Origin: Candidatus Doudnabacteria bacterium
GTDB taxonomy: Bacteria; Patescibacteriota; Doudnabacteria; UBA920; O2-02-FULL-48-8
Assembly: GCA_016182875.1 (NCBI GenBank)
Contig: JACPFQ010000001.1
Location: 20-64,019, forward strand
DNA: 64,000 nt
Direction of reading: 5' to 3'
The translations under genes and the position numbers were made by a program. Positions within the stretch are counted from its first letter, which is position 1, and the number at the start of each line of letters is the position of its first letter. This document shows positions 60,336 through 62,990 of the stretch, one piece after another. Below the pieces are notes generated by a model, which saw nothing but the letters and a program-made list of their open reading frames with translations, was not told the DNA's origin and searched no databases.

Positions 60336-60364
60336 TTGACAAAACGACTAATTTAATAGATAAT
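60336..60364 (+). promoter_or_regulatory. near-consensus sigma70 promoter TTGACA-17-GATAAT pointing into the structured array
   Basis: -35 TTGACA at 60336-60341, 17-bp spacer, -10 GATAAT at 60359-60364. Confidence 0.55.
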
Positions 60365-61023
60365 TGCCTGTCGGTGAGACGATTCTAATGTCTCACCGCC
60401 GGACTGATTTGGACGAAAGAATCCGTGTCTTCAAGACGAGGAGCGGCATGTCCACTCAGTCCGTCCTTTTCTCAAGCATAGACAATCGCATTTGCGAGGA
60501 CCCCGGACTCCGATCCGGGGAACGAAGCAATCTAATCTTGAGAAAGGGTGCGATGTTGCGATTGTTCTTGAATGGACGAAGGGACATGCGCACCCTCGTG
60601 GCGGACGAAAATATTTATGTCCTTTACTGGACGAATGAGGGAGTGTCCGCCACGAAATTTTAAACCGGAGGAATCAAGTTTGGTGAGACGAGGTGCGAGG
60701 TGTCCGCTAGGAGGACGAACTTAGTGGTGTCTCACCACCGGACTGAAAGACGAATCCAAGGATGTCTCTTGTAGACGATGGGTCGTATGTCATTTCAGTC
60801 CGGCCTTTTCCAAATGATTCATCTACGAAATAGAACTCCCCTCTCCTGGAGAGGAGAGGGGTCGGGGGTGAGGTGGATTATTCATTTGGAAAGGGTACGA
60901 GAGTTTCATTGTCCATATAGGACGAACCACCGACTGTACCCTTTTGGCGGACGATTGATAGCATGTCTGAAGTAGACGAGCATGTCTTTGTCCGCTACCA
61001 CGTTCCTTTTCAAGGAGTGCGCC
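60365..61023 (+). ncRNA. candidate structured non-coding RNA array (about 8 stem-loop modules with conserved stems and variable loops) upstream of the recombinase gene
   Basis: stems GGTGAGAC/GTCTCACC, GTGGCGGAC/GTCCGCCAC, AGGGTRCG/CGYACCCT, CCGGACTGAAA/TTTCAGTCCGG; inner hairpins GTCY-N5-8-RGACGA; promoter upstream. Confidence 0.5.
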
Positions 61024-62283
61024 ATGAGCCGAATCATCGGAATCCGGCATCGCGTGAAGAAGACCAAGGACGGCGAGGCAAGGCCGACCCAGGTGGTTAT
61101 TGCGTCAAACGGCGAGACTGTCACCTATGACCTGGTGGATGAGAACGACGAGCTCGACTTCGTGCTCGGACGCTTCCCTGTCCGCTACCGCAAGGTTGCG
61201 GAGGACGAGGACCTCTCCGGCTTCATCCAGCGCCAGGTGCGCTGGCGCAAGCTCGACAAGCGCGAGAATCGCGAGCAGTACCCCGCCAATCTCGTGCGCC
61301 AGGACGGCAAAACCTGGCACCTGGCCACACACGTGCCGATCGCGTTCGACGGGTTCCAGCCCGGCGATACGGCAGCCATGGTCCTTGGCGGCTCTGGCGA
61401 CAACCTCGCCTACGCGCTGTCGCGGCGCGGCGAGGCAATCGGCGCCAAGGTCCTGCGCATCCCGCCGTTCCATCTCAAGGCCCAGCGCGGGGACGCGGAC
61501 CGCAAGGACGATGCGCTGCTGCTCACACGGCTGGCCGCGGAGAAGCCGGAACTGTTCTACGAAACCGGCCCCCGCGACCGTCACCTCATCTCCATCCGTG
61601 AAGCGTATCGCGCCCGCAAGGACGTGATGAAGCAGCGGATCGCGTGCGAGCAGCGCATCTTCGGCAACCTCCACGGCCAGATCTTCCGCAACGACGAAGG
61701 CCACTACCCCGAGGGTGCCATCGAGGATCTGTACAACAGAGCCAAGGCCAATGACACGATCCTGCAGAACCTCCTTGCGGAGGAGACCAGGCGGGAACGC
61801 GAGTTGGCAGAGGCGCTGGAAAGCTTCCCGGTGTACCAGCAGATCTTCGCGCCCATCGAGGAGTGCGGGATCATGACCGCAGCGCGGCTCATCGGCTCCA
61901 TCATCGACATCCGCAGGTTCGCAACCAAGTACAAGCTGGTGGCGTTCTGCGGCGCGCACGTGATGGCTGACGGCCGGTTCCCCAGGCGGCGGTCGGACGA
62001 AGTCGCCAACTGGAATCCGGAGGCGCGCCAGGCCTTGTATCTGCTGGGCGACCAGTGGAACCGCCGGCCGGGCTCGTACTGGGGCCAGAAGCTGCTGGCC
62101 AATAAGTCCAGGCTCAAGCAGCGCCACCCCGAACCGTTGCTGGTCGACGGCGTCATGAAGTACACTGCCGCGCACCTGCACCGCACCGCGCTGTGGCGTA
62201 CCGGCACGCAGTTCGTGCGTCATCTGTACGGCGCGTGGTGGGCGTGGCAACGGGGAATCAGCGCCAAGGAGGATGCTGCATAA
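61024..62283 (+). CDS. IS110-family-like DEDD/HhH recombinase (transposase)
   Basis: C-terminal IEECGIMTAARLIGSIIDIRRFATKYKLVAFCGAHV matches the IS110 Transposase_20 HhH pattern (GIG.ITAA.L..EIGDI.RF...L.AYAGL); central GAKVLRIPPFHLKAQRGDADRKDDALLLTRLA matches the IS110 DEDD region around KTDxxDA; AAGGAG Shine-Dalgarno; very G+C-rich. Confidence 0.65.
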   Translation: MSRIIGIRHRVKKTKDGEARPTQVVIASNGETVTYDLVDENDELDFVLGRFPVRYRKVAEDEDLSGFIQRQVRWRKLDKRENREQYPANLVRQDGKTWHLATHVPIAFDGFQPGDTAAMVLGGSGDNLAYALSRRGEAIGAKVLRIPPFHLKAQRGDADRKDDALLLTRLAAEKPELFYETGPRDRHLISIREAYRARKDVMKQRIACEQRIFGNLHGQIFRNDEGHYPEGAIEDLYNRAKANDTILQNLLAEETRRERELAEALESFPVYQQIFAPIEECGIMTAARLIGSIIDIRRFATKYKLVAFCGAHVMADGRFPRRRSDEVANWNPEARQALYLLGDQWNRRPGSYWGQKLLANKSRLKQRHPEPLLVDGVMKYTAAHLHRTALWRTGTQFVRHLYGAWWAWQRGISAKEDAA

Positions 62284-62990
62284 TGTGAGACGAGGAATCG
62301 ATTGTCCGTAATTTGGACGTACGCTAGGTTGTCTCACAACCGGATTGCAGAAACGATTCTGCAATCCGGCCTTTTCTTAAGATAAATCGCATTTGCGAGT
62401 GAAGGAACGTCAGACGTTCCGAAGCGAAGCAATCTATTTTGAGAAAGGGTACGAATGGTTCAGTGTCCTTACAGGACGAGGATTGTGTTGTACCCTCGTG
62501 GCGGACGAACATGTGTCTGTCTCTTGAAGACGATAACTGCTTTGTCCGCCACGAAATTTTAAACCGGAGGAATCAAGTTTGGTGAGACGACCATGCAGTT
62601 GTCCTCAATGGACGAATTTGGTGGTGTCTCACCACCGGACTGAAAGACGAACCCGAGGATGTCTCTTGTAGACGATGGGTCGTATGTCATTTCAGTCCGG
62701 CCTTTTCCAAATAATTCATCTATGAAATAGAACTCCCCTCTCCTGGAGAGGAGAGGGGCTGGGGGTGAGGTGGATTATTCATTTGGAAAGGGTGCGGGCA
62801 GGATCATGTCCTCACAGGACGATCGTTTCTTTGCACCCTCGTGGCGGACGATTTATTCGTTGTCCGTTGTGGACGAAGGATGTCGTGTCCGCCACGAAAT
62901 TTTTTGAATCGGAGGAATACCAAGCTTGGTGAGACGAAGGGCCCGCTGTCTCTCGAAGACGCTTCCTGAATTGTCTCACCGCTGGTCTAG
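62284..62990 (+). repeat. downstream structured-repeat array (about 10 modules, same stem families as upstream; includes a 253-bp near-identical copy of 60645-60897)
   Basis: direct sequence comparison of 62544-62797 with 60645-60897. Confidence 0.6.

Follow-up and report, generated by a model that had tools for sequence, protein, structure and literature searches.

Here we describe a stem-loop-type TIGR-Tas system which, with high confidence, belongs to the CPR 'dead TasR' clade. It occupies positions 60336-63016 (+ strand) of the window, the 64-kb stretch of DNA that was analysed as a whole, as a single promoter-to-terminator unit comprising the gene for a 419-aa protein, 15 intact stem-loop modules and two degenerate ones. 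Directly established at the locus are its anatomy, its family membership, the loss of catalytic residues, the conservation of gene plus array, and the promoter and terminator motifs. The locus is real and neatly ordered, but known already: it is an unexceptional representative of the TIGR-Tas family, which was described recently. It brings no new kind of biology; the multi-module array flanking the gene on both sides, which the initial annotation had taken for an undescribed layout, is the stem-loop form of the array by which TIGR systems are defined (PMC12045711; bioRxiv 10.64898/2026.09.09.750476).

That annotation, made from raw sequence, recovered an RNA-guided class published only in 2025-2026. 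An identical protein is named 'transposase' by its source, and this name should become TIGR-associated protein. Its promoter and terminator are defined and 15 spacer pairs are annotated, which makes the locus usable as a clean chromosomal example.

Architecture of the locus

Every feature of the initial annotation is found in the sequence at the positions it gave. The promoter first proposed at the head of the array, TTGACA-17-GATAAT, is present, is sigma-70-like and matches 11 of 12 consensus positions; it is the putative driver of the whole unit, within which we found no second + strand promoter-like site comparably placed. The far end is marked by the sole strong + strand intrinsic terminator, and a rho-independent terminator is the usual end of TIGR arrays (PMC12045711). 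Between the two, the array runs through elements that we label A (GGTGAGAC), B (CCGGACTGAAAGAC), C (long hairpin), D (AGGGTRC), E (GTGGCGGAC) and linker. Of what was noticed at the outset, all four families of outer stem, the inner hairpin and the higher-order succession of stem classes are there, and the repeat has a period of ~340 nt. The motif RGACGA, initially reported at least 13 times upstream and at least 10 times downstream, was counted 13 times 5' of the ORF (60377-60979) and 11 times 3' of it (62288-62937), always on the + strand, and the whole window holds 87 copies against 49 +/- 6.6 expected. The ORF fills one linker slot exactly, with an AAGGAG and ATG of its own and with the array resuming at its TAA (62281-62283), just as described before. 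With respect to TIGR layout, all modules lie on the same strand as the adjoining tas gene, the first unit is truncated and the terminator comes last. The modules originally described stand as 15 intact units and two degenerate ones (A1 and B3). In order, the features are as follows.

60336..60364, +: sigma-70-like promoter
60372..60398, +: module A1, degenerate; outer stem GGTGAGAC/GTCTCACC, lacking the loop hairpin and full spacers (sequence; weak covariance-model match 60374-60396, E=0.098)
60400..60464, +: module B1, tigRNA unit; spacer A AAGAATCCG, spacer B GGAGCGGCA (covariance-model match 60410-60454; spacer parse)
60465..60548, +: element C1, long hairpin (CCTTTTCTCAAG.../...CTTGAGAAAGGG) around a G+C hairpin, spacer-less (inverted repeat I8)
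60545..60596, +: module D1; spacers TGTTGCGAT / AGGGACATG (covariance model and spacer parse)
60598..60653, +: module E1; spacers AAATATTTA / ATGAGGGAG (top covariance-model match of the window, 39 bits, E=4.6e-7)
60654..60681, +: linker GAAATTTTAAACCGGAGGAATCAAGTT with RBS-like GGAGG inside (repeat D11, 48 nt identical to the copy at 62543-62590)
60682..60736, +: module A2; spacers GGTGCGAGG / ACTTAGTGG (covariance model and spacer parse)
60737..60801, +: module B2; spacers ATCCAAGGA / TGGGTCGTA (covariance-model match 60745-60795)
60803..60895, +: element C2, long hairpin around CCCCTCTCC..GGAGAGGGG (inverted repeats I2 and I3; 3' arm overlaps the D2 5' stem)
60889..60945, +: module D2; spacers GAGTTTCAT / ACCACCGAC (covariance model and spacer parse)
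60945..60997, +: module E2; spacers TTGATAGCA / GCATGTCTT (covariance model and spacer parse)
61012..61017, +: ribosome-binding site AAGGAG, 6 nt 5' of the ATG at 61024
61024..62283, +: tas gene, 419-aa TasR-type protein (NCBIfam NF052498, PDB profile match 9mty, AF2 model, Foldseek)
62284..62338, +: module A3, directly after the stop codon; spacers GGAATCGAT / ACGCTAGGT (covariance-model match 62285-62337)
62339..62371, +: module B3, degenerate; plain hairpin CCGGATTGCAGAAACGATTCTGCAATCCGG then CCTTTTC (sequence; flagged terminator-like)
62372..62450, +: element C3, long hairpin, paralogue of C1 (repeats D15 and D20)
62446..62496, +: module D3; spacers ATGGTTCAG / GGATTGTGT (covariance model and spacer parse)
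62496..62554, +: module E3; spacers ACATGTGTC / TAACTGCTT (covariance model; spacer parse set by hand)
62555..62580, +: linker, second copy (repeat D11, 100% identity)
62580..62634, +: module A4; spacers CCATGCAGT / ATTTGGTGG (covariance model and spacer parse)
62634..62698, +: module B4; spacers ACCCGAGGA / TGGGTCGTA (covariance-model match 62642-62692; 2/18 spacer positions differ from B2)
62700..62792, +: element C4, paralogue of C2 (repeat D1, 187 nt, 95% identity; inverted repeat I6)
62789..62839, +: module D4; spacers GCAGGATCA / TCGTTTCTT; box C is CGG (covariance model and spacer parse)
62839..62897, +: module E4; spacers TTTATTCGT / AGGATGTCG (covariance model and spacer parse)
62898..62926, +: linker, third copy, diverged, GAAATTTTTTGAATCGGAGGAATACCAAGCT (repeat D14)
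62927..62981, +: module A5, final unit; spacers AGGGCCCGC / TTCCTGAAT (covariance-model match 62929-62979)
62981..63016, +: intrinsic terminator, 13-bp stem (62981-63010) then TTTTTT

Guide-RNA modules and their conservation

An intact module starts with the outer stem and CGA, continues with the 9-nt spacer A, UG, a small hairpin and a second CGA, and ends with the 9-nt spacer B, UG and the outer stem; the loop hairpin is 4-5 bp in every one of them, and the window holds four outer-stem classes. The variable segments had been put at 8-12 nt, a range that gives way, once the CGA and UG motifs are assigned, to exactly 9+9 nt in 15/15 intact modules. Across the 80 homologue loci, 352 of ~470 regex-detected modules likewise have 9/9 spacers, with lengths of 7-12 permitted. 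The suggestion that constant stems with variable internal-loop strands amount to programmable guide segments was right in spirit, as was the remark that the layout differs from a single two-loop bridge RNA, there being 15 independent units.

A covariance model (R1) was trained solely on modules of other genomes. It returned 16 matches in the 64-kb window, all on the + strand and all inside 60374-62979, with no module away from the tas locus, and 475 further matches beside tas homologues in 80 CPR loci; among the best 300 of these 475, the module lies on the gene's strand in all but five, those five in locus L075. The outer stems show 4-6 pair types per position with pairing kept, the box C/D C-G being the sole invariant pair, in a set of 76 modules whose 100% pairing is partly circular because they were chosen by a regex that demanded it. 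UG and the C-G pair are invariant in alignment A2, although the loop-side TG and both C/G positions had been prescribed by the regex that picked its modules, and CGA is the commonest box C at edge and loop positions alike. CUUUU follows B1, B2, B3, B4, D2 and E2, and D1, D3 and D4 are followed instead by ...CCCUCGUGG; the CUUUU of element C1 sits at the base of the stem before C1. A search of Rfam gave no match.

In most of the 80 loci, which come from many CPR lineages, modules of this same type lie on either side of the homologous gene and share its strand. This bears directly on the alternative put forward initially, in which a host REP-like palindromic array, expected then also at intergenic sites with no recombinase nearby, captured an IS110-type gene by chance. 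REP sequences are indeed a known target of IS110 elements, and the G+C content of the tas gene (0.649) is far above that of the array (about 0.50) and of the remainder of the window (0.482). However, the excess runs through the whole family, with a mean of +9.7 points and a value above 5 points in 40/49 loci, and is therefore no sign of recent insertion at this locus. With modules accompanying the homologous gene across CPR loci, and none elsewhere in the window, we rejected chance capture, whose probability we regard as close to nil.

Family and fold of the TasR protein

The NCBIfam model TIGR_Tas_endo (NF052498) recognises residues 192-405 of the 419-aa protein with 125.5 bits, above its cutoff of 100, whereas the NCBIfam IS110 models fail (41 bits against a cutoff of 140, and 19.6 against 180). 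The Pfam profiles on which an IS110 assignment would have leaned also stay below threshold: Transposase_20 reaches 20.8 bits against 21.3, and DEDD_Tnp_IS110 15.9 against 29. Searched against the PDB, a profile of 28 homologues matches TaTasR (9mty) at E=4.5e-22 and IS621 at 0.023. In Foldseek, the AF2 model (pLDDT 89.7, pTM 0.81) finds TaTasR 9mty first (E=1.5e-11), IS621 next (4e-8) and TasH after; IS621 and ISCro4 are both significant fold matches (E about 4e-8), and Nop5 structures are marginal ones (E above 0.5). The protein consists of a RuvC domain with an insertion of ~78 residues, a coiled coil and a Nop-type RNA-binding domain. Its N-terminus aligns with 27 homologues, and it is 49% identical to a Buchananbacteria protein (locus L025) that is Faure et al.'s named example of a TasR with inactivated RuvC (Faure et al., 2025). 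The gene thus encodes a TasR-type TIGR-associated protein and no transposase; what holds of the initial label, IS110-like recombinase, is an evolutionary kinship between the protein and IS110 recombinases.

Loss of catalytic residues

Three of the four acidic RuvC positions are substituted, by R8, L121/G122 and K160, and the substitutions are conserved across 28 homologues. R8, at the end of beta-1, is R in 27/28 homologues; beta-4, at which one would expect an acidic residue, carries the invariant L121, G122 and G123; and K160 takes the place of the first Asp in the DxxD motif of TaTasR. Of the four acids, D163 alone persists (invariant); a mostly conserved D126 also remains. In a profile alignment with IS621, the ESGSS segment of the latter aligns to DGRFPRR, and no conserved Ser occurs at the IS110 catalytic position. 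The catalytic serine of IS621 is presumably S241, which we place in the ESGSS segment. As judged from the alignment and the predicted structure, the RuvC domain is catalytically dead. The AF2 model places the insertion, a helix plus beta-sheet (residues 38-115), between beta-3 (31-37) and beta-4 (116-120); it matches the ~80-residue insertion described for CsTasR, in which R8 likewise occupies the first catalytic position (2026 preprint, bioRxiv 10.64898/2026.09.09.750476).

A nuclease-active TasR, cleaving DNA that matches both spacers in the manner of TaTasR and ParTasR, would accord with family membership, with an NCBIfam model named 'RNA-guided endonuclease' and with the retention of D163 and D126. 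The conserved loss of three catalytic acids argues against such activity, as does the finding that the clade members PateTasR and CsTasR show no in vitro cleavage (2026 preprint), and we consider it very unlikely.

The same residues weigh on a second alternative, that of a mobile IS110-family element with an expanded multi-loop bridge RNA whose loops specify donor and target for recombination. IS110 recombinases (IS621, ISCro4) do share the overall architecture of RuvC-like domain, coiled coil and RNA-binding domain, a homology reflected in the weak Pfam matches and the fold matches above, and the two-strand internal loops resemble bridge-RNA binding loops, in which two strands read two DNA strands. 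Yet in IS110 elements the DEDD is intact, a catalytic serine is present and a single RNA carries exactly two loops, one for the target and one for the donor, the donor loop matching the ends of the element itself; these elements are mobile and usually multi-copy. Here, by contrast, three of four DEDD positions are non-acidic, no serine aligns to the ESGSS serines of IS621, and 15 independent guide units occur with no sign of mobility. The locus sits among housekeeping-type genes (MraY-like and D-Ala-D-Ala carboxypeptidase-like), with modules nowhere else in the window, and homologues occur at one place per contig among the matches listed, in distinct CPR genomes. Failing the curated models as well, the transposon reading was rejected as extremely unlikely.

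Relation to known systems

Closest to the locus are the CPR dead TasR systems, namely CsTasR of Candidatus Staskawiczbacteria and the Buchananbacteria system (Faure et al., 2025; Xu et al., bioRxiv 2026). Besides the CPR host, R8 and the insertion between beta-3 and beta-4, they have in common with it a tigRNA with palindromic outer stems, a 4-5-bp loop hairpin and box D of UG, effective 9+9-nt spacers, and arrays that flank tas on either side and share its strand. CsTasR differs in length (547 aa against 419 aa here) and in spacers of 10 nt, 9 of them pairing, compared with 9 nt as written here. That four stem classes recur together with a long hairpin devoid of spacers, in a higher-order repeat of ~340 nt, is an arrangement that we did not find spelled out in the TIGR-Tas literature examined. 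TaTasR (PDB 9mty), the top structural match, shares the Nop-type RNA-binding domain, the coiled coil, the N-terminal RuvC fold and the terminator at the array end. It differs in having an active RuvC (D11 and the DxxD motif) with DNA cleavage, a C-terminal processing loop, and 36-nt units in which fixed repeats at edge and loop (UG...CCA) take the place of variable palindromic stems.

Proposed mode of action

A ~2.65-kb precursor would start from the one promoter and end at the terminator, carrying the tas mRNA and 15 functional tigRNA units. In each unit, the outer stem and the small loop hairpin would bound a symmetric internal loop, with spacers A and B as its two strands, each spacer having box C (CGA) before it and box D (UG) after it. 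For processing, dimer binding, 18-bp dual-strand targeting and repression, we infer from published work on CsTasR, PateTasR and TaTasR. Units would be excised probably by a host RNase near the CUU(UU) motifs at stem bases; a TasR dimer may then bind each unit, with one Nop domain at the outer-stem box C/D pair and that of the other protomer at the loop-hairpin pair. Such a complex could unwind an 18-bp DNA site, spacer A reading one strand of a half-site and spacer B the other strand of the adjacent half-site. Because the RuvC domain is predicted to be dead, the complex would bind without cutting and may act as an RNA-guided roadblock or transcriptional repressor.

For CsTasR and PlTasA, the literature shows transcription of the array and its processing to tigRNAs of unit length, which co-purify with the Tas protein. 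CsTasR binds 18-bp targets in a guide-dependent manner without cleavage and represses an E. coli reporter (2026 preprint), and the published description of the CPR clade as a whole comprises a dead RuvC with ~80 inserted residues, tigRNAs whose loop contains a hairpin, a target of 18 bp and RNA-guided repression of transcription (bioRxiv 10.64898/2026.09.09.750476). Searches with the spacer pairs, including for the complementarity to flanking sequence envisaged initially, gave no target in the 61 kb of flanking window or in the 80 related loci, and none above controls in viral contigs.

Alternatively, the spacers could direct the protein to rRNA or tRNA, with modification or regulation of that RNA as the outcome, as in archaeal and eukaryotic box C/D sRNPs (Nop5-fibrillarin-L7Ae). 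The succession of stem, guide, internal element, guide and stem is that of a box C/D sRNA with its terminal stem, two guides and internal hairpin; a Nop-domain dimer and an inactive RuvC-like N-terminal domain are common to Nop5, and the CPR clade has been considered a possible intermediate towards snoRNPs (Faure et al., 2025). However, the modules carry CGA and UG in place of box C RUGAUGA and box D CUGA, which are absent, and have no k-turn (GA/AG) signature; no fibrillarin or L7Ae gene adjoins the locus, the guides are 9 nt rather than 10-12 nt, and Nop5 is only a marginal fold match. Furthermore, homologues bind DNA, not RNA: the structure of CsTasR was solved with a 20-bp dsDNA target, and CsTasR repressed DNA-encoded reporters (2026 preprint). 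RNA guidance to RNA targets therefore seems to us very unlikely, and DNA remains the preferred target in our reading.

Evolution of the array

The upstream and downstream half-arrays are recent duplicates of each other; their constant parts, unpaired linkers included, are 93% identical, and their spacers 59%. It is conceivable, if rather doubtful, that TIGR arrays grow by whole-block duplication followed by spacer-specific renewal, through diversifying selection or active replacement. Were block duplication true, the RBS-like linkers would be scars of deleted tas copies, and the process would be relevant to spacer acquisition in TIGR arrays. Studies of TIGR spacer turnover, and of what CPR bacteria target with their spacers, could draw on the two paralogous half-arrays.

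TIGR-Tas affiliation and organization of the locus

The locus is a typical member of the TIGR-Tas system, a system already described in 2025-2026, and its novelty is therefore low. The array and open reading frame noticed in the initial annotation are both confirmed, and together form a compact plus-strand unit between two minus-strand genes:

59234-60280, minus strand: MraY-like gene, one neighbour of the unit
60336-63016, plus strand: compact unit (promoter, array, tas, array, terminator)
60336-60364, plus strand: near-consensus promoter TTGACA-17-GATAAT (11 of 12 consensus positions)
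60372-60398, plus strand: degenerate module A1
60465-60548, 60803-60895, 62372-62450 and 62700-62792: element C, a spacer-less long hairpin between B and D modules
61024-62283, plus strand: tas open reading frame, 419 codons, with AAGGAG six bases 5' of the start
62339-62371, plus strand: degenerate module B3
62981-63016, plus strand: closing terminator, a 13-bp hairpin followed by a T-run
63019-63909, minus strand: D-Ala-D-Ala carboxypeptidase-like gene, the other neighbour

Stem-loops lie back to back over ~650 nt on either side of tas, and the details of the earlier description hold: RGACGA is present in 13 copies 5' of tas and 11 copies 3', on the plus strand in every case; the order of the four outer-stem families is fixed and repeats every ~340 nt; and tas fills one linker slot, the following module beginning one base past its stop codon. 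An Rfam scan of 59800-63400 (E<=1) returned only a chance miRNA match, and no curated Rfam family covers tigRNAs, the guide RNAs of this system.

Module anatomy

Helix ends are constant, with ...C-G-A always on the 3' side and U-G... always on the 5' side. Treating CGA and UG as fixed motifs gives a single layout for every module, namely outer stem, CGA, 9 nt, UG, 4-5-bp hairpin, CGA, 9 nt, UG and outer stem, and the variable nucleotides number exactly 9 + 9 in 15/15 intact modules. In TIGR (Tandem Interspaced Guide RNA) arrays, which adjoin a Nop-domain Tas protein, each unit runs through edge element, spacer A, loop element and spacer B; spacers are usually 9 nt, edge and loop elements both begin with box D (UG) and end with box C, and a 'stem-loop' variant has its edge repeats replaced by palindromic stems (Faure et al., Science 2025, PMC12045711).

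Element C may serve in processing or folding. Its 3' arm (GGAAAGGG) shares sequence with the 5' strand of the outer stem in the D module, such that the two pairings compete, and a CUUUU run lies at the base of the C hairpin. An analogous long-range stem occurs at L021, one of the homologue loci considered below.

Conservation of tas and array as one unit

The Tas protein has >580 homologues at 45-65% identity, and those for which a source gives an organism name belong to CPR/Patescibacteria. Of 80 genomic loci of homologues retrieved for comparison, most show GACGA enriched on the tas strand in both flanks, and 352 of ~470 modules found in this set by a regular expression permitting spacers of 7-12 nt have 9/9 spacers. 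A covariance model of the module, R1, built from 76 modules of other genomes only, gave 16 matches in the 64-kb window, all on the plus strand and all within 60374-62979, with none elsewhere in the window; across the 80 loci it gave 475 matches at E<=0.01, virtually all adjoining tas on its strand. Stem positions show four to six pair types, the sole invariant pair being the C-G of the CGA/UG motifs; the 100% stem pairing is partly by construction, as modules were chosen for pairing, a choice that does not account for the variety of pair types.

Since modules are shared with tas homologues across loci, tas and array are a single conserved unit and not a chance meeting of an insertion sequence with a host repeat. 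The proposal that a REP array had captured an insertion sequence fails, as modules were found solely beside tas in the window and in 80 other genomes. Composition does not rescue it: G+C is 0.649 in tas against ~0.50 in the arrays and 0.482 in the remainder of the window, yet this is a family-wide trait, tas exceeding its distal flanks by a mean of 9.7 points, and by >5 points in 40/49 homologue loci. Recent horizontal insertion, which the high G+C of tas might otherwise indicate, was rejected on the same ground.

Several loci depart from the common pattern. Arrays at L001 (3300-4000 and 5460-6200), whose homologue is the nearest among those on long contigs (58% identity), keep the layout with another box C, for example GGCAGAC-TTA-N9-TGTCC..GGG-TTT-N9-TGTCTGCC, and owing to this difference escaped both the CGA-based expression and R1; box C thus seems to vary among subclades while box D stays UG. 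A second Doudnabacteria locus, L075, has five high-scoring modules downstream of tas on the opposite strand (3561-4077, minus strand); among the 300 best-scoring R1 matches listed, no other clear departure from arrays on the tas strand occurs. L010 (3110-3200, 3400-3480 and 5440-5530) has a putative tRNA-like sequence just upstream of its array, which is split into sub-arrays that each have their own terminator-like hairpin and TTGACA...TATTAT promoter-like site, versus the single promoter of the window unit.

Protein identity and catalytic status

The protein scores 125.5 bits against the NCBIfam model TIGR_Tas_endo (cutoff 100) and 41 bits against the NCBIfam IS110 model (cutoff 140), and neither Pfam IS110 domain reaches its gathering threshold. 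A profile built from 28 homologues finds TaTasR (PDB 9mty) at E=4.5e-22 versus IS621 at E=0.023, and for the AlphaFold model, which is a confident one (pLDDT 89.7), the best PDB match is TaTasR, with IS621/ISCro4 and TasH ranking next. The Buchananbacteria protein cited as an example of TasR with an inactivated RuvC (PMC12045711) is 49% identical to ours over residues 3-406; the names of our contig and of 'Doudnabacteria' are absent from the searched supplements of that paper.

At the first catalytic position, the end of beta-1, the protein has R8 in the motif IGIRHR, versus IGID in RuvC-type enzymes, and arginine is found there in 27/28 homologues. In beta-4, L121-G122-G123 are invariant; K160 aligns to the first Asp of the TaTasR DxxD motif, of which D163 alone is kept. 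No serine of the protein aligns to the serines of the IS621 ESGSS segment, in which we take the catalytic S241 of IS621 to lie. Conserved substitutions at catalytic positions make an active nuclease unlikely, judging from sequence. A transposon of the IS110 family using a multi-loop bridge RNA is likewise rejected: family thresholds and catalytic residues speak against it, as do copy number and conserved synteny. The initial annotation was right about programmable guides and an IS110 relative, and wrong in where it filed the system.

The structure model places ~78 residues (helix plus beta-sheet) between beta-3 and beta-4, and resolves the N-terminal 110 residues, considered as an extra domain, into RuvC strands 1-3 plus this insertion. 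Two such proteins have been solved by cryo-EM; in the CPR protein CsTasR the first catalytic position is occupied by R8, ~80 residues are inserted between beta-3 and beta-4, the tigRNA loop contains a hairpin and the target is 18 bp long (September 2026 preprint, 10.64898/2026.09.09.750476). CsTasR shows no cleavage in vitro, exerts reversible, guide-dependent transcriptional repression in E. coli, and has its RNA processed near CUU motifs at stem bases (10.64898/2026.09.09.750476). In sequence and predicted structure our locus matches this description feature for feature, with CUUUU following some of its modules and not others.

Proposed mechanism and target searches

What is documented at this locus itself is its anatomy, its family membership, the loss of catalytic residues and the signals for transcription. 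By analogy with homologues, a ~2.65-kb transcript would be processed to ~15 tigRNAs, each held by a TasR dimer via the box C/D pairs, two per tigRNA. Spacer A would pair with one DNA strand, and spacer B would pair with the opposite strand over the adjoining 9 bp; the dead nuclease would act as a roadblock. A box C/D-like role, with the modules guiding to RNA instead, appears very improbable, given that k-turn motifs and adjacent partner genes are absent and homologues bind DNA.

Composite 18-mers of the 15 spacer pairs, in both geometries (rc(A)+B and B+rc(A)), gave no self-targets in the array-masked window at <=2 mismatches, and 2 at 3 mismatches versus a mean of 1.4 for shuffled pairings. 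Against the 80 loci plus the window, 365 spacer pairs gave 0, 0 and 31 matches at 0, 1 and 2 mismatches (controls 0.2, 2.2 and 30.2). Exact searches of viral contigs with B2 and B4 gave 6 matches, which belong to two sets of related viruses, and a single match; controls with two mismatched-pair patterns gave 1 and 47, which puts these matches at chance level. No spacer targets above controls were therefore found in the window, the 80 related loci or viral contigs, in agreement with the authors' statement that split 18-nt guides yield many chance matches (10.64898/2026.09.09.750476).

Linkers and divergence of the half-arrays

The E-to-A linkers (60654-60681, 62555-62580 and 62898-62926) carry GGAGGAAT followed 6-8 nt on by TTG or GTG, with the look of a ribosome-binding site and start codon, and occupy the slot that tas takes with AAGGAG-N6-ATG. 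They may be what is left of deleted tas copies. The sequence after them holds no consistent open reading frame, and small peptides started at GGAGG...TTG were rejected, the frames being short and inconsistent among units; equivalent linkers at L021 are without GGAGG.

Spacer-focused divergence between the half-arrays is the one lead at this locus that touches an open question. The segments 60598-61000, upstream of tas, and 62497-62897, downstream, are paralogous blocks, whose non-spacer positions, unpaired linkers included, are 93% identical (285/308), versus 59% (51/87) for the 9-nt spacers; a 48-nt stretch across the linker is 100% identical, its adjoining spacers largely different. This pattern suggests, from sequence comparison, a block duplication followed by spacer-focused change. 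No strain variants showing spacer turnover were found, the three other contigs with an identical protein being sequence-identical, short fragments of the same population. Modules B2 (60737-60801) and B4 (62634-62698) have an identical spacer B (TGGGTCGTA) and differ at 2/9 positions of spacer A (ATCCAAGGA versus ACCCGAGGA); they could stem from a recent duplication, or be two guides that follow variants of a single target.
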